From: a virus
Taxonomy: Duplodnaviria > Heunggongvirae > Uroviricota > Caudoviricetes
Direction: 5' to 3' (one strand)
DNA: 39,242 nucleotides
Virus record (IMG/VR): IMGVR_UViG_2734482547_000015
Each line of letters opens with the position of its first letter. Position 1 is the stretch's first letter. The position numbers and the translations under genes were made by a program. This document shows positions 2,056 through 9,018 of this stretch, one piece after another. The notes below the pieces were generated by a model. It searched no databases. It was not told the origin of the DNA and was given only the letters and a program-made list of their open reading frames with translations.

Positions 2056-2130
2056 GATTATTGTCCTCTGATTGGTATATAAAGCGCCCATGAAAATAAA
2101 ACCGACAGGAGAAACTGCCGGTTTGTATTG

Positions 2131-2385
2131 TTACATCATGGTGCTGTCAGTTCCGGGCTGAGCCGGGTCTGGTTGCTCTGGCTGCGCGTCGGTTTTCGGC
2201 TCATTATCAGCATCACTGGCCGCAACTGCTGGCCCAATAAGTTTTGCCAGCACTTCATCAACGTAAGTGTCGATTTGTGCCTCAAAATCCTTGCGGACCT
2301 GCGCTTTCAGCAACTTATTTACTTCACCGGAATACAGTGCCTGTTTTACCAGGTCTTCAGTGACGGTGCCTTTAATTTCTGGCAT
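2131..2385 (-). CDS. Hypothetical small protein (84 aa) with Pro/Glu/Asp/Gln-rich acidic C-terminal tail
   Basis: Near-perfect Shine-Dalgarno AAGGAGGA 6 nt upstream of ATG; C-terminus ...SDADNEPKTDAQPEQPDPAQPGTDSTMM. Confidence 0.65.
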   Translation of the reverse strand: MPEIKGTVTEDLVKQALYSGEVNKLLKAQVRKDFEAQIDTYVDEVLAKLIGPAVAASDADNEPKTDAQPEQPDPAQPGTDSTMM

Positions 2386-2420
2386 GTATATCCTCCTTAT
2401 GCGGGAATAAAGCCCTGCAA

Positions 2421-2603
2421 TCAGGGCTGGGTCGGGTCTTTTGGGAGCGGAGTTACCTGCGCTGTTTTACTGAGTTTTTCAGCTGCTGCGTCCTCAATTT
2501 TGCGGCGAACATAATTTCTGATGGCCTTATAACCACCACTCACCAGATATAACGCACATACTGCCGTGCAGAAATACAATAAAATAAGCTGTAAAAATGT
2601 CAT
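2421..2603 (-). CDS. Hypothetical small membrane protein (61 aa, single N-terminal TM helix)
   Basis: GGGAGGGA Shine-Dalgarno directly upstream of ATG at 2603; hydrophobic segment FLQLILLYFCTAVCALYLV followed by charged tail. Confidence 0.6.
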   Translation of the reverse strand: MTFLQLILLYFCTAVCALYLVSGGYKAIRNYVRRKIEDAAAEKLSKTAQVTPLPKDPTQP

Positions 2604-2699
2604 TATCCCTCCCAATTATTGACATGGTGTTGACACCGGTAATATCTGTTAGGTAAAAAGGTGCACTGCATTTTTTGCTTTGGATATAACGATCTTTTT

Positions 2700-2742
2700 G
2701 CCGCCGGTTTCTTGTTTTCCCTTACCGGCGGCATTTTTTTAT
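2700..2742 (+). terminator. Intrinsic terminator-like hairpin on plus strand (GCCGCCGGT ... ACCGGCGGC followed by ATTTTTTTAT)
   Basis: 9-bp GC-rich stem with ~15-nt loop followed by T-run on plus strand; on minus strand the hairpin is followed by A-rich sequence, so it is not a canonical terminator for the esterase gene. Confidence 0.45.
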
Positions 2743-2747
2743 CCTGC

Positions 2748-4802
2748 TTACGCGTTATTCACTTCCACCACGATACTGTCAATCAGTACCGGGTAAGTCG
2801 CATTTTTAGTGATATCGGTCACGCGCAACTTGTCTGCCGTAAACGTGCCGACCGGAGACTGCGACAGCATGAATGGTGTCCCGTCCTTACCATCAATGAC
2901 CGGCGTCACCTCAATACTGTTGTTACCGGCAAAACGGAAGCCCAGCGTATGCCATTCGTTATTAAATGCGCCGAATGACCCCAGCTTCGTGTTCTGCGCC
3001 GTGTTTCCTTTGTGATACATCACGTTAAGGTCTGTGGCATCGCTCTGTACGTAGAACGATGCCAGCAGGTTATGACCGGCATTTCCTTCCAGAGTAACCC
3101 CTTGCGGCAGGGCAGAAACCGGCCAGTACAGCGCCAGTGCGTACTGATTAGCCGTAAGCGCGCCATCGAGTTTAAAACGACAACTGACAAGACCACCTTT
3201 ACCCAGCAGGTCCGCACCATTACCAGCATCATGCTCAAGGTACCAGGGGGCTCTTCCTGTTTCCTTGGTCAGTTTCATTGCCTTACCCCCGCTGGCTCCG
3301 GCATCATCCACGATTTGAGCCTTGCCACCTCCGGCAGCCCAACCCTGTGGTGTCAACCGTCCTTCAGACTCAGATGCCCGGTAAGCAAATAGCGTACTCA
3401 TCGTCGTGGTGTCTGCGGGTGGCGTGGACGGTTTTGATGGTGTATCAGGTGACGGCTTCTCATCCGGTGGTGTCACGGTCTGCCCGCGCATCAGTTCAGC
3501 CGTGCGCCCTGCATGGAGCATAATAGCTGAGGCCAGACGGTCTGAAATGACGCCCCTGCGTGCCCATGAGCTGAAATGGCTGTCACGCTGTGTCGAAACA
3601 AAACTGCCCTGGGTTCGGGATGCTGCACCGTAATACCCGACAGCCACAATATCCGGGTCTTCCGCCGGAGCATTCGTTGGCGTGCTCTGTCCATTCTCAT
3701 CCGTCAGGAACGGTACAAAGAAAATTTTCTGTGCTTCCTTGCCTTTGTAGCCACCGTATACTGCCTCATATTTATCGGTGCCAGCGTTTTTCCAGTAATA
3801 CGTGGTATCACCGCAAATCCACGGCACCGTGGTGGCATTTCCACTCACGCACTGCGCAGCAAGCGGAGCCAGGTCAGTTCTGAACTGCTGAACCATGGCC
3901 GTGAATAAACTATTATGCTGCTGGCTTCCTGAGGCAAGGTCTGCCTCTCCCTGCATCCAGACCACAGCCAGAAGTTTGTTTTTCGGGTTTTTCGCCAGCG
4001 CGACTTTGGTGCGGCTTACCAGGTCCTGATACAGAGGTTTACCGGCCCCCCAGCGTGAAGAATCAGCGGAAGCACCGCTGGCCTCACTGAATGAGCCGTC
4101 GGCTCCAGTGGTGAATGCTGACCCGCCACGACAACAGGGCACCAGAAGTATCCCGGCATTCTGTGGGATATAGGGAAGCAGTTTTTTGGCAATATGCAAC
4201 CCCTGACCGACAGTCCCGTACTGGCCTTTTGCCAGATCAGCTTTCGGGTGGTTTATCCCGCTCATATCCTGAACATCATGCAGGCAGTGGTCTGCCGGAA
4301 TGATGTCGTTGTATGTACACGACGTACCGTTGGGCGTTACCGTACTGCGGCGTGCCAGTTGCTTAATGCGTGGGTCCGGGCGGTCAAACGAATCCGGTAA
4401 CGGCAGCCCCTCGCCGTAGGCCATGCCATTTGACTGACCCGCGAGAATGACAACAAAGTAATATTCCGGCTCTGAACTGCTGCCATTCGTGCTACCGGAA
4501 GGCCCGGCGTTATCCGGTGCATTCCAGTCGGAGGGCGTGAGCGTTCCGGCCACGTCAGATGTGATTGGAATGATGCCAGTCACGCCTGAACTGGTGATTT
4601 CTGCACTGGGATTACCGGATACCGGCATTACCCATAATGGCTCTTTCGTGCTGAAGCGGATCACGCAGTCTGCGAAAGTGATCCCCCCTTTATTACCCGA
4701 AGGGCGGAAAGGGCTTTCAATAAATGCCACCGTGCCACCGGCAACCTTGACTGAAAACTCTCCGGGCATGGCGGAGAGCATTTTCCACTTGGAGTCTGAC
4801 AT
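2748..4802 (-). CDS. SASA-family (sialate O-acetylesterase-like, SGNH-type) carbohydrate esterase domain protein, 684 aa, with N-terminal domain and C-terminal beta-sandwich-like region
   Basis: Central motifs YFVVILAGQSNGMAYGEG and VVWMQGEADL typical of the SASA esterase family; resembles prophage NanS-p-type esterases; sits at the position that holds only com-mom in Mu. Confidence 0.8.
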   Translation of the reverse strand: MSDSKWKMLSAMPGEFSVKVAGGTVAFIESPFRPSGNKGGITFADCVIRFSTKEPLWVMPVSGNPSAEITSSGVTGIIPITSDVAGTLTPSDWNAPDNAGPSGSTNGSSSEPEYYFVVILAGQSNGMAYGEGLPLPDSFDRPDPRIKQLARRSTVTPNGTSCTYNDIIPADHCLHDVQDMSGINHPKADLAKGQYGTVGQGLHIAKKLLPYIPQNAGILLVPCCRGGSAFTTGADGSFSEASGASADSSRWGAGKPLYQDLVSRTKVALAKNPKNKLLAVVWMQGEADLASGSQQHNSLFTAMVQQFRTDLAPLAAQCVSGNATTVPWICGDTTYYWKNAGTDKYEAVYGGYKGKEAQKIFFVPFLTDENGQSTPTNAPAEDPDIVAVGYYGAASRTQGSFVSTQRDSHFSSWARRGVISDRLASAIMLHAGRTAELMRGQTVTPPDEKPSPDTPSKPSTPPADTTTMSTLFAYRASESEGRLTPQGWAAGGGKAQIVDDAGASGGKAMKLTKETGRAPWYLEHDAGNGADLLGKGGLVSCRFKLDGALTANQYALALYWPVSALPQGVTLEGNAGHNLLASFYVQSDATDLNVMYHKGNTAQNTKLGSFGAFNNEWHTLGFRFAGNNSIEVTPVIDGKDGTPFMLSQSPVGTFTADKLRVTDITKNATYPVLIDSIVVEVNNA

Positions 4803-4887: not shown

Positions 4888-5460
4888 TCACGGTACTTTT
4901 GGTGACGGAGCTGGTGAGGCAGGAAAATAACGATAAAGAGTGGAAAGGCCAATATCAAATATCAGTGCGATTTGTTTACGGGACTCGCCATTAGCCAGCA
5001 AACGGGCGATTTGCTCCCGCTCTTTCTCTGTCAGTTTCTGAGGTCTGCCGCCATGACGCCCCTGAGCACGGGCAGCAGCAAGACCCGCGCGTGTACGTTC
5101 AATAATGAGTTCCCGCTCCATTTCCGCCAGCGCGCCCATTATATGGAAAAAGAAACGTCCCATGGGAGTGGATGTATCAATATTGTCCGTAATGCTGCGG
5201 AAGTTAACGCCGCGTTGCCGGAGTTCTTCTGTTAAAAGGACAAGGTGCTGCATACTGCGTCCAAGGCGATCCAGTTTCCAGACCAGCAGGGTATCCCCTG
5301 GCCGGAGTCGCTTTAATGCGCGTTTAAGTCCGGGACGCTCCCTTGTCTTACCGCTTATTCTGTCTTCGAAAAACAGCTCACATCCTGCACATTCCAGCGC
5401 ATTTCTTTGTAGCGCCGTATTCTGGTCATTTGTTGACACCCTGATATACCCAATCAGCAT
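4888..5460 (-). CDS. gin: Serine recombinase, Gin/Hin/Cin-family DNA invertase (190 aa)
   Basis: N-terminal catalytic region MLIGYIRVSTNDQ with resolvase-like fold and C-terminal HTH (GLSTLYRYF); immediately adjacent to the invertible segment; AAGGAAA Shine-Dalgarno and TATAAT upstream. Confidence 0.9.
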   Translation of the reverse strand: MLIGYIRVSTNDQNTALQRNALECAGCELFFEDRISGKTRERPGLKRALKRLRPGDTLLVWKLDRLGRSMQHLVLLTEELRQRGVNFRSITDNIDTSTPMGRFFFHIMGALAEMERELIIERTRAGLAAARAQGRHGGRPQKLTEKEREQIARLLANGESRKQIALIFDIGLSTLYRYFPASPAPSPKVP

Positions 5461-5537
5461 ACGATTTCCTTATTATAAAAAGCCGGAATTGTCGCATGAG
5501 GAATAAAACAGAGTTAATCCTGGCTTTCCTGAAAACC

Positions 5538-5607
5538 TCGGTTTACGGGAAACGGTAAACAGGGCGGCGAATGCTCTGCCATCGGACGGCACCGCCGTTG
5601 CCGCGAA
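5538..5607. repeat. Left inverted repeat (~70 bp) of the invertible tail-fibre segment
   Basis: Sequence GGTTTACGGGAAACGGTAAACAGGGCGGCGAATGCTCTGCCATCGGACGGCACCGCCGTTGCCGCGAA is the reverse complement of ~6787-6856 with one mismatch. Confidence 0.85.
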
Positions 5608-5899
5608 TAGACTCGCCACCCCAAGAAATATTAATGGGGTTCCCTTTGACGGGACGCAGGACATAAACATCACTTCTGGTATAACACAGCAGGATGCGGA
5701 TTCCCGATATATCCAGGATATCAGGCTGGGAGCAGAGAACAGGCAGGTAATGTACGGTGGGGCATATTACTCTGCGTACGGTAATGTTATGGCAGGCCTG
5801 CAGATTGACAGTAAAGTTGATGCTTCAAACGATTTTATAGCATTCAGACCCCTGCAAAAATTAGTCGGAGGTACATGGATTACGGTATCTCAGTTATAA
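5546..5899 (+). CDS. Silent alternative tail-fibre C-terminal cassette (S'v-like), in frame through the inverted repeat but without its own start codon
   Basis: Plus-strand translation [45 protein letters not shown]... shares the [24 protein letters not shown] junction with the expressed fibre (6504..7385) and then diverges; ends at TAA ~5897. Confidence 0.7.
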   Translation, partial: RETVNRAANALPSDGTAVAANRLATPRNINGVPFDGTQDINITSGITQQDADSRYIQDIRLGAENRQVMYGGAYYSAYGNVMAGLQIDSKVDASNDFIAFRPLQKLVGGTWITVSQL

Positions 5900-5950
5900 A
5901 TAGTCAGTAAATAATATATTTTAAAACAGATTTATTTCCAGGAGGATTTT

Positions 5951-6472
5951 ATGGAACTAAAAAATATAACCCGTTATTATCCTGAAAATATGCCATATGG
6001 TAATAATGTTCAGTATTTCCAGAGTGAAGATGGTAAGGATTTCTACGAATCCCTGCCATTATTCACCAAAAAATATAAACTTTGCATAACACCTGACAGC
6101 GGCGTTATCTGCTCAATATCACAGGACGCCTCGGCGCTGTATCCTGCGGGGTTTTCTGTGGTTGAGGTCGATGAACTCCCTGAAGGCACGGATATTTCAG
6201 GAAACTGGAAGTTTGATAATGGCATAATCTCCCGTATTCCGGTTAACTACGCAAGAAAACTGGAAGCAATGCGCCAGTCATATCTTAATCAGGCATATGA
6301 AAAAATTAATGACTGGAGAACGGAGCTACAACTGGGCACCATCAGCGATGAAGACAGAGCAGCACTTACCCAATGGATGGCATACATCAGTCAGGTGAAG
6401 AAAATGGAACTACCCGCCATTAAAACAGAAGCTGAATTTAACGCCATTAAATGGCCTGAGCAGCCACAGTAA
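5951..6472 (+). CDS. Tail fibre assembly protein (Tfa/U-like chaperone), 173 aa
   Basis: CAGGAGGA Shine-Dalgarno; position immediately downstream of the alternative fibre cassette; sequence resembles phage tail-fibre assembly chaperones. Confidence 0.75.
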   Translation: MELKNITRYYPENMPYGNNVQYFQSEDGKDFYESLPLFTKKYKLCITPDSGVICSISQDASALYPAGFSVVEVDELPEGTDISGNWKFDNGIISRIPVNYARKLEAMRQSYLNQAYEKINDWRTELQLGTISDEDRAALTQWMAYISQVKKMELPAIKTEAEFNAIKWPEQPQ

Positions 6473-6475
6473 TAA

Positions 6476-6500
6476 AGAAGGCCGGAAGGCCTTCTGAATA
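6476..6500. terminator. Hairpin between convergent tfa and fibre cassette (GAAGGCC GGAA GGCCTTC), possible bidirectional terminator
   Basis: 7-bp stem with tetraloop between the two convergent reading frames; U-rich on the minus-strand side. Confidence 0.4.
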
Positions 6501-6503
6501 TCA

Positions 6504-7385
6504 TTATATACTTGCAGCCGTCACCCATGCTCCATTTAACAGATACTGCAACGGCCGGTAATACACGCCGCCGACGTTATCTGCCGTATTCTTACCGACA
6601 TCCTGTACTTTAATTCCGGTAAGAACATTGCCGCCCCCCAGATTCAGATCCCAGCTTTCCCATGTTCCGGGCATATGTGCGGTCACCGACCCCAGTCTTA
6701 TGGCGGTTACTGTTCCTGATGAGATAGTGATATCCTGCGTCCCGTCAAAGGGAACACCATTAATTGTGTGGGCATTTGCCAGCCTGTTCGCGGCAACGGC
6801 GGTGCCGTCCGATGGCAGGGCATTCGCCGCCCTGTTTACCGTTTCCCGTAAACCGACGTTATCGATAAAAGCCCCTTTATCCGGAATGTCTGCGCCGTTC
6901 TGCTCCCTGCGCAGGTAACGGTTATCACCTTCGCTTTTGCTGTAAACATCCAGATTATTACGGGCGGTTCCCTTATTCTCCAGGTCGGCGAGATTCTGAT
7001 CCTTCGCCAGGGCATTAACGTCAGCGGGACCAAGACTGTTTTTTGTGGCAAGCGTCCCCAGACCAAGATAACCACGGGCCAGACGCTGGGCCTCCGCACC
7101 GGCATCAGCAATTTCTTTCAGGTTATTTTTCCGGGAAAAAGCATTCGCAGCGATAATGGCTTTAATGGACAGCGTAAGCTGGTTTAACTGCGCCTTATCC
7201 GGCTGAATACTGGCTTCAGCCAGAATATTCAGCAGTTCGGCCTGGAGAATATTCAGCCAGTCCTGACCAATCCAGCTGATACCTTTTTGTCCGTCACCTT
7301 CAGTAAACCAGGTGGTGGTATTACTCTGCGCCGGTGCCAGCGCAGGCATATTCGCCACGCCGGAATTATTATCAACATGAAACAT
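6504..7385 (-). CDS. Tail fibre protein (Mu S-like), constant N-terminal part fused to the currently expressed variable C-terminal cassette
   Basis: 293-aa ORF crossing the right inverted repeat; C-terminal ~95 aa lie inside the invertible segment. Confidence 0.85.
6787..6856. repeat. Right inverted repeat (~70 bp) of the invertible segment, inside the tail-fibre gene
   Basis: Reverse complement of ~5538-5607 with one mismatch. Confidence 0.85.
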
Positions 7386-7945
7386 TAAATAGTCTCCTCT
7401 TCATGGCTGTTTGCATACACGTAAATAAACGTCTGCCATGCAGGCTTATAACGGTTCAGAATACATTCCAGCGCACCGCCTTCATAAATACGCAGCGGCG
7501 TGAGAATATCATCCAGCACATTCATATTCCGGTAGCCGGTTTCACTGTTAATCGTGACAATACTGACCCACTGTGAATCCGGTGATGGCTGAATATCTAT
7601 TTCATAACCAAACTCTGCCGCAAACCGGATATAAAATTCACGGTTAAGAGAGGGTTTCATCCGGTATTTATTCCCGGCATAACGCTGACGCTCCTGAATG
7701 GTTGCGCCGGTCATATCACATTCCGGTAACCCCAGATAACGCTCCCAGTCTTCCAGCAGCAGACGGGATGAATCAGGAAAACGTTCTGCCAGCATCTGGT
7801 TACCGGTCCAGGAAACACGCTCCGTGGAATGACTGAGGCCCAGGCACAAAGCCGCAAGAACGGATGACGGCCGCTTATCCCATGCCAGCCCGTCAGGCAG
7901 CAACTGCAACAGGGCGCGCTGATGCGGGGTCAGGGTTACAGCCAT
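7385..7945 (-). CDS. Tail/baseplate protein (Mu gp48-like)
   Basis: 186-aa ORF in conserved position between baseplate J-like gene and tail fibre; overlaps upstream gene end. Confidence 0.7.
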
Positions 7946-9018
7946 GTGATTTCTCCTACCGTCAGCAGCTCACTGTCTCCCGCCTGAACTGACGTCAGCG
8001 GACTGCGCACTTCAAAATCCTCCAGATTTTTCACCCCTGCCACCGCCCGCCAGAAAGACGACGGCAGAACCAGACCGCCGGGCCGGGATTCGTTATACAA
8101 CAGGTCGGTCAGCGCCTGTTTTACGGCCGCCTGATTCTCCGGTGTTTTCGGGATGATCCTGATGCTGAAGGGCACCGGCTTATTGGTCAGTTTAAACACG
8201 GTCACCGTCGGCCCCAGAGGCTGTCCGACAGGCTGGCCGGTCGCCGGATCATCATGACTGCGGATATAATCCGCCACCCGCTGAACATCACCGTCACCGG
8301 GGAAAATGTCCGGGTTATTATCCTGAACAAACGTTACCCCCACGCTGCCCGCCTGCGGCCATTCCGGGCGGCACCATGCCCGCGTCACGCCCGGCACTTC
8401 ACGCGCCCAGCGTTCAAAATCATACTGCGTGCCGCCGGACGGTGGATTCTGCACCCGGAAAACCAGACGGGAAAGCAGCTCCGGCACGGTTTCCACATCT
8501 GCACCACCGGTGATCCCCGTTCCGGTCACCGTGGCCGTCTGGTTGATCCCCGCCTGCGGTGTGATAAATGTCAGTTTTGTCCCTGCCGGGGCATTCCCCG
8601 CACGACCGGCACTTTCGGCTTCCACACTGACATTCAGCGTACCGGCCTTACCGGTCAGGGAGGTGGTGATACGGTAAACCACGCCATCACTTCGCTGGAG
8701 AAGCACACCTTCCTTGATCCCCGCATCCGTGGTCAGCATCAGCTGAACCGGCCCGTCCCCCCGAGAGGCAGGCTTACGCATGACGCCCCAGAATGCACAG
8801 TGTTTCAGCAGTTCGGCTTCATCGGCTTCGGTCGGGATGATCTGACGCGCAATCCAGGCCAGATGCTCATGCTCCTGAGCAGATAACCCTGCCTGAGCGT
8901 AAGCAATGGCATTCAGGGTGGTTTCATTCACACCCGGCTGCGAGCCGGGCAGGCGCTGGCTGATATCCTGCTGTGTCTGCGTGATTAACTGTGCCAGCGG
9001 TAAAGGCTGATAAGGCAT
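7936..9018 (-). CDS. Baseplate J-like protein (Mu gp47-like)
   Basis: 360-aa ORF, size and position typical of baseplate J family. Confidence 0.8.
   Translation of the reverse strand: MPYQPLPLAQLITQTQQDISQRLPGSQPGVNETTLNAIAYAQAGLSAQEHEHLAWIARQIIPTEADEAELLKHCAFWGVMRKPASRGDGPVQLMLTTDAGIKEGVLLQRSDGVVYRITTSLTGKAGTLNVSVEAESAGRAGNAPAGTKLTFITPQAGINQTATVTGTGITGGADVETVPELLSRLVFRVQNPPSGGTQYDFERWAREVPGVTRAWCRPEWPQAGSVGVTFVQDNNPDIFPGDGDVQRVADYIRSHDDPATGQPVGQPLGPTVTVFKLTNKPVPFSIRIIPKTPENQAAVKQALTDLLYNESRPGGLVLPSSFWRAVAGVKNLEDFEVRSPLTSVQAGDSELLTVGEITWL

Follow-up and report, generated by a model that had tools for sequence, protein, structure and literature searches.

Invertible segments that exchange the 3' end of a tail fibre gene are a textbook case of host-range switching in phages. 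The G segment of phage Mu is 3 kb long, and each of its two variable fibre tips (318-334 residues, or about 320-335) comes with a tail fibre assembly (tfa) gene of its own, U or U'. The P segment of the Escherichia coli prophage e14, which is inverted by Pin and carries stfP, tfaP, tfaE and stfE, measures 1,797 bp and also holds two tfa genes, one per tip, and the C segment of P1 with its invertase Cin is likewise a serine-invertase switch of tail fibre 3' ends. Here we describe the invertible segment of a Mu-like prophage of E. coli contained in the IMG/VR record IMGVR_UViG_2734482547_000015, a stretch of 39,242 nucleotides that is referred to as a whole as the window. This segment has two alternative fibre tips and one tfa gene, a layout conserved in a large prophage family, and we consider it somewhat probable that the single Tfa would serve both tips.

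The segment has much in common with the Mu G segment. Its invertase, which has a resolvase catalytic domain and a C-terminal helix-turn-helix (HTH), is an orthologue of Mu Gin with 74% identity; the invertase gene adjoins the segment, with com and mom downstream; the crossover sites have the half-site GGTTTAC(A/G)GGAA and the central TC; the crossover falls at the same codon of the homologous fibre gene S; and the phage backbone is of the Mu type. It differs from the G segment in its size of 1.3 kb and in its tips of only 116 and 119 residues. It also has one tfa gene where Mu has two, and this gene starts 51 nt after the preceding tip with its own ribosome-binding site, whereas the spacing in Mu is 2 nt. 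In addition, the homology of the repeats reaches ~150 bp into the segment compared with 34 bp in Mu, and cargo genes (DUF6645/SASA esterase, DUF1378 and DUF826) that have no Mu counterpart lie between the invertase gene and com. With the e14 P segment the locus shares a serine-invertase switch of tail fibre 3' ends in an E. coli prophage and neighbouring baseplate genes of the YmfQ/Mu gp48 type, and it differs from that segment in the number of its tfa genes.

The invertible segment and its two orientations

The following features make up the switch, with positions counted in the window.

4888-5460, minus strand: serine DNA invertase of 190 residues, Gin orthologue (Pfam Resolvase 1.6e-51, HTH_7 4.9e-15)
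5526-5551, plus strand: gix-like crossover site beside the invertase gene, TTCCTGAAAACC-TC-GGTTTACGGGAA, central TC at 5538-5539
5531-5679, plus strand: invertase-proximal arm of the inverted repeat (partner arm 6715-6863)
5540-5899, plus strand: silent tip B cassette, type B1, 119 residues, without its own start codon; the fibre 3' end after inversion
5900-5950, plus strand: AT-rich spacer of 51 nt from the tip B stop to the tfa start
5951-6472, plus strand: the only tfa gene, 173 residues, with its own AGGAGG ribosome-binding site (Pfam Caudo_TAP, PF02413, 4.8e-19, above the cut-off)
6476-6495, no strand assigned: palindromic GC-rich hairpin with an 8-bp stem between the convergent stops of tip A and tfa, a terminator-like site (fold -23.5 kcal/mol, z = -3.8)
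6504-6854, minus strand: tip A cassette, 116 residues, now fused to the fibre, stop at 6504, no tfa after it
6868-6843, minus strand: gix-like crossover site within the fibre gene, TTATCGATAACG-TC-GGTTTACGGGAA, central TC at 6856-6855
6857-7385, minus strand: constant fibre part Sc, ~176 residues, outside the segment; stays with the flank in flipped assemblies
6504-7385, minus strand: open reading frame of the tail fibre gene S as now assembled, 293 residues, Sc plus tip A

The segment proper spans 5540-6854 and is 1.3 kb long. The two gix-like sites, of 26 bp each, are inverted relative to one another and have the same central TC and the common half-site GGTTTACGGGAA, and no further such site is present in the 39-kb window. 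The Mu sites, TTATCCAAAACC-TC-GGTTTACAGGAA, have this half-site and the central TC in common with those of the window. In codon position, the site within the fibre gene corresponds to Mu gixL (NVGLRETVN here, NLGLQETVN in Mu), and homology to Mu S extends over residues 1-191 of the fibre (PDB 5yvq_A, E 9e-46; 47% identity). A preliminary description of the locus, made from its sequence, had placed the limits of the segment at 5538 and 6856, which proved to be the two central dinucleotides.

The inverted repeats detected by the repeat finder fall into two blocks, the first at 5531-5616/6778-6863 (86 nt, 93% complementary) and the second at 5630-5679/6715-6764 (50 nt, 84%). Translation of both arms agreed with the earlier statement that the repeats are in frame within the fibre gene, as both cassettes carry on the reading frame from GLRETV. 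The preliminary description had also supposed that repeats short of perfect would speak against its reading. Strictly, the repeats are imperfect, with identity limited to the first 37 nt counted from the crossover; this imperfection is irrelevant because inversion demonstrably occurs.

Inversion was evident from copies of the prophage in other E. coli strains. In FORC_043 the interval equivalent to 5522-6873 is inverted between collinear flanks, and the sequence differences that lie inside the repeat move with the segment, while those outside the TC core remain with the flank. FORC_029 and NCCP 13983, which have a common insertion site and genome lengths 1 bp apart, represent one clone assembled twice. 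The segment is the only difference between them over 18,521 bp, and an in-silico flip between the TC cores reduced the number of differences to 0. In FORC_043 and NCCP 13983 it is tip B that is joined to Sc, with tfa after it, and the flipped genomes encode a fibre of 296 residues. Among 5,426 complete E. coli genomes the orientation of the window was represented by ~20 copies and the other by ~6. Each of four strains (DLI.5a, TOE17, AST46 and CI5) contains two copies from the prophage family that are opposite in orientation or form. In addition, a published long-read survey (PMC9881135) includes an inversion, recorded as confirmed, in a homologue of the Mu S fibre. Together, these data showed that the inversion is real and that the segment is functional, and they bear out the earlier designation of the locus as an invertible tail fibre segment. 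With an invertase, paired sites and both orientations found, the segment is an inversion switch of the Gin/G type. Switches of this type also have a Fis-dependent recombinational enhancer (sis) in the 5' part of the invertase gene, and Fis sites are highly degenerate in sequence.

The Gin-like invertase recombines the two 26-bp gix-like sites and thereby exchanges the 3' end of the fibre gene. Inversion swaps the last 116-119 codons of the fibre, ~70 of which are unique to each tip, and the two tips presumably correspond to two host ranges.

Two further observations concern the sequenced copies of the segment. Eleven IMG/VR contigs stop within the inverted repeat, at fibre codons 169-224. Mixed orientation breaks short-read assembly, and these contig ends suggest that the sequenced cultures held both orientations; the perfect repeat is only 37 bp long. 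Silent cassettes were also now and then frameshifted, as seen for tip A in FORC_043 (L001, 3661-3978; a G run at about 6636-6641 of the window) and for tip B in L044 (around 1533). Such frameshifts could represent true decay of an unexpressed copy or homopolymer sequencing errors.

The single tfa gene across the prophage family

By its sequence and its position after a fibre tip, the gene at 5951-6472 is assigned to the tail fibre assembly family. Its product matches Mu U (PDB 5yvq_B, E 4e-16) and has 32% identity to U' and 28% to U. The search for other members used a hidden Markov model (HMM) built from the Tfas of this prophage family together with Mu U and U'; across all six frames of the window at E<=10, the sole match was at 5915-6472. 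The stop of tip A is separated by 31 bp from the convergent stop of tfa, and no same-strand open reading frame of more than 32 residues starts within 200 nt downstream of tip A. The hairpin between the two stops is probably the terminator of the fibre operon in either orientation.

These results agree with the preliminary description, which had reported two tips and one chaperone gene, with no chaperone gene after the cassette now fused to the fibre and a Tfa gene following the silent cassette on the same strand. A second chaperone gene in the segment, for which that description had left room, was looked for both among the open reading frames and with the HMM and was not found. The difference from Mu to which it had drawn attention also holds, as an assembly gene for each tip, such as Mu has in U and U', is lacking here.

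To place the locus in its context we compared it with E. coli relatives at 80-90% identity, O157:H7 prophages included, and with 77 IMG/VR loci. The prophage family is present in more than 230 of the 5,426 complete E. coli genomes, including as prophages of O157:H7. Each short-fibre locus examined (with a fibre of about 290-305 residues) had exactly one tfa. The cassette without tfa is always of type A, which has the motif ADN[IV]xGVY[YF]R and a length of 116 or 126 residues (A116 and A126), and the cassette linked to tfa is one of three unrelated-looking types, B1, B2 and B3. The one-tfa asymmetry is therefore a trait of the family. True Mu-like loci with two tfa genes do exist (L058 and L059). 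A scan of one genome per species yielded 8 loci only, of which 2 were useful, and the IMG/VR scan was far richer.

The ratio of non-synonymous to synonymous substitution rates (dN/dS) was 0.08-0.15 among A116 alleles and 0.04-0.12 among A126 alleles, at dS values above 1 that mark synonymous saturation. The B tips had higher ratios than type A, mostly 0.1-0.3. Ratios of 0.04-0.15 in type A indicate that the tip without tfa is a selected, functional protein.

In one O157:H7 copy (strain ECP19-198; L003, 4127-5029) the fibre gene is annotated merely as a 204-nt fragment and a small open reading frame on the opposite strand, and the constant fibre part may be disrupted there. The Sp18 prophage of strain Sakai is called intact in the paper on it.

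Tfa and tip A

Comparison of tips and Tfas within the prophage family bears on whether one Tfa would be able to act on more than one tip. The distal parts of B1 and B3 have 31% identity, and the Tfas that accompany them 90-92%. Conversely, one pair of B3 tips that are 95% identical is accompanied by Tfas with 75% identity over residues 1-100 and 48% over the rest. With 41-45% identity to B2 and B3, type A is no more distant from them than the B types are from each other. Judged by these alignments, Tfa in this family is not tip-specific, its identity being uncoupled from that of the tip.

Within the family the N-terminal 100 residues of Tfa were better conserved (70-97%) and the C-terminal part more variable (45-100%). 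The general Tfa pattern described in PMC9608196, which cites North et al. 2019, is the opposite one.

In alignments, tip A matches the terminal parts of Mu S', SfMu S', P2 H and fibres of the Vequintavirinae. Three loci of Vequintavirinae fibres, which are among the closest relatives of tip A outside the prophage family, were opened; an annotated tfa lies directly downstream in two of them and an unnamed open reading frame of 194 residues in the third. A type-A-like tip in Citrobacter braakii is also followed by tfa. As its relatives in other phages are followed by tfa, tip A belongs to a Tfa-associated class.

A lineage of the family that has lost the ability to invert is informative in this respect. 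Its members (L024, L025, L027-L031 and the prophages of E. coli M1, M3, M18, CI5 and JE86-ST02) have a common deletion equivalent to 4956-5947 of the window, which comprises tip B, a gix site and most of the invertase gene. Their fibre can end only in a type A tip, A116 or A126. The convergent tfa is intact in every copy, with dN/dS of 0.10-0.23 at dS up to 0.43. In three strains the locked prophages lie inside flgL, inside xdhA and beside citF, with tail genes annotated intact. For a phage of the Mu type, three chromosomal sites indicate independent integrations, which in turn indicate infection by virions able to carry only tip A; tip-A-only virions would thus be infectious.

The preliminary description was right about the layout, as tfa runs antisense to the late fibre operon when the segment is oriented as in the window. 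Its proposal that the fibre would now be made without a cognate chaperone is at most partly supported, as Tfa is not tip-specific, the relatives of tip A are followed by tfa and the locked lineage keeps the gene. Based on these observations, we modestly favor as the most likely reading that a single generalist Tfa would serve both tips. After inversion, tfa would share a transcript with tip B, which precedes it. As the segment stands now, tfa would need a transcript of its own, presumably one starting at a weak promoter within or upstream of the AT-rich spacer. The tfa spacers of the prophage family, 51-108 nt long, AT-rich and with their own ribosome-binding sites as opposed to the 2-nt coupling in Mu, fit independent expression of tfa and prove nothing. 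The 51-nt spacer of the window contains only weak promoter-like matches (8/12), and the locked lineage has a 10/12 match at its deletion junction. The Mu C-protein site pattern TTAT-N6-ATAA was uninformative, with one match in the window, at 2397-2410 and far from the segment, and 25% of shuffles doing equally well.

Several points weigh against a generalist Tfa. A standard promoter scan of the window found no promoter for tfa on the plus strand, and a relaxed scan for tfa gave only matches of 8-9/12, not distinguishable from chance. The 10/12 match of the locked lineage, lying at a deletion junction, need not exist in members that are able to invert. Among the locked members tfa has ~90% identity compared with ~96% for the adjacent junction region, and the low dN/dS of their tfa could come in part from alleles imported by recombination from invertible relatives. 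Databases contain more copies with tip A fused to the fibre than copies in the other orientation, and a chaperone-independent tip would explain this equally well. Finally, the pairing of Tfa with tip A is drawn from sequence comparison.

The alternative of a chaperone-independent tip A, under which this tip would fold and trimerise without Tfa, Tfa would serve the B-type tips alone and inversion would switch both the tip and the production of a chaperone or cap, is possible, although we regard it as unlikely. The Tfa of Mu reportedly remains on the fibre tip and contacts lipopolysaccharide. No type A cassette of the family comes with a tfa of its own, and yet the type is strongly conserved, and both the greater frequency of the tip-A-fused orientation in sequenced lysogens and the failure to find a good tfa promoter for the present orientation would be expected of a tip that needs no chaperone. 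Such a tip is harder to reconcile with the homology of tip A to the ends of fibres that, where checked, are accompanied by tfa (Mu S', P2 H and those of the Vequintavirinae), with the tfa that follows the type-A-like tip of C. braakii, with the lack of tip specificity of Tfa in the family, and with the tip-A-only locked lineage, which keeps tfa intact under purifying selection. The wider proposal that inversion toggles chaperone use as well as the tip, so that type A fibres, of the same fold class as those built with Tfa, would assemble without it and be a natural exception in a class of chaperone-dependent fibres, is correspondingly a rather doubtful one. It appears improbable that Tfa for tip A is supplied in trans, whether by a minority of copies flipping in lytic replication or by the tfa genes of other resident prophages. 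Promiscuity is a property of Tfa proteins (lambda Tfa is able to stand in for T4 gp38), and the four strains with two family copies in opposite orientations or forms would offer such a supply. Against this, the locked lineage is unable to flip and is nevertheless intact, inserted at three sites and in possession of its own tfa, and reliance on other prophages would be unreliable for a phage entering new hosts.

Decay is a very improbable explanation. Under it, the segment would have lost a chaperone gene accidentally, and the orientation now seen would be non-productive or OFF and yield particles that are fibreless or misfolded. The occasional frameshifts in silent cassettes (tip A of FORC_043, tip B of L044) are what decay would produce, but the layout is conserved over a family whose tip A alleles are synonymously saturated, tip A has dN/dS of 0.04-0.15 and phages with tip A alone have integrated at three chromosomal sites. 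The reading of tip A as a decaying cassette was rejected on the last two of these grounds. We give hardly any credence to a second chaperone gene hidden in the segment or elsewhere in the prophage, given the 31 bp between the convergent stops, the lack of a same-strand open reading frame of more than 32 residues and the single Tfa match in 39 kb. These results contradict a hidden chaperone of the Tfa kind; a chaperone unrelated to Tfa would be beyond the reach of sequence alone.

The prophage and its described relatives

Judged by its gene content, the element is a complete Mu-like transposable prophage of E. coli, as all the Mu hallmarks that were sought were found. E. coli JE86-ST05 holds a prophage that is 99.9% identical, and its annotation by the Prokaryotic Genome Annotation Pipeline (PGAP) was used for gene content. 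This copy is annotated with Mu transposase, a MuB-like AAA ATPase, Gam, Mor, lysozyme and head, tail and baseplate genes, and the gene order after the baseplate is fibre, invertible region, recombinase, DUF6645/SASA esterase, DUF1378, DUF826, com and mom. Copies of the prophage family were found at differing chromosomal sites. Two baseplate genes lie next to the fibre gene in the window.

7385-7945, minus strand: baseplate gene of the Mu gp48/YmfQ type (Pfam Phage_Mu_Gp48)
7936-9018, minus strand: Baseplate_J gene (Pfam)

On the other side of the segment, between the invertase gene and com/mom, a protein of 684 residues with a SASA sialate-O-acetylesterase domain and DUF6645 is encoded at 2748-4802 (minus strand). 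Small DUF1378 and DUF826 genes come next after it, the whole region at 2128-4802 (minus strand) having no Mu counterpart. We take this set of genes to resemble the late region of Shiga toxin (Stx) phages. ARAGORN found no tRNA in the whole window, and in the identical prophage PGAP places a 'tRNA-OTHER' (L006, 23495-23574; about 21,500 in the window) between the virion morphogenesis and minor head genes.

The E. coli O157:H7 strain Sakai carries Sp18, a Mu-like prophage that belongs, together with its relatives, to the same prophage family. The copies in O157:H7 and other Shiga toxin-producing E. coli have 80-90% DNA identity to the window and the same elements, namely an invertase, a type A tip without tfa, a tfa and a tip linked to it. 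They differ in their tip alleles, with A126 combined with B2 or B3 where the window has A116 with B1. Earlier published work mentions the invertible region of this family (Asadulghani et al., on the Sakai prophages).

Tfa is usually treated as the cognate partner of one fibre, and here two tips, or five family-wide, coexist with one Tfa. This natural system allows the specificity of Tfa and its need for co-transcription with the fibre to be tested directly, and both matter for the engineering of phage and tailocin host range by tip swaps.

Fewer tfa genes than tips were also found in a Mu-like prophage of C. braakii (L011, L064), which resembles the locus of the window in its constant fibre part (74% identity to Sc), its gix-like sites and its invertase. 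It differs in having, in strain ATCC 51113 (L011, 6819-9223), three candidate gix-like sites and three tips of 197, 203 and 116 residues. The lone internal tfa stands after the type-A-like tip, and a collagen-repeat fibre-like gene and another tfa are located downstream of the invertase gene. This locus looks like a multi-site, shufflon-like version of the switch. A literature search found no published remark on an invertible segment with a single chaperone gene. Compared with the described systems, the single-chaperone layout is new, and the switch mechanism in which it is embedded is of a known kind.

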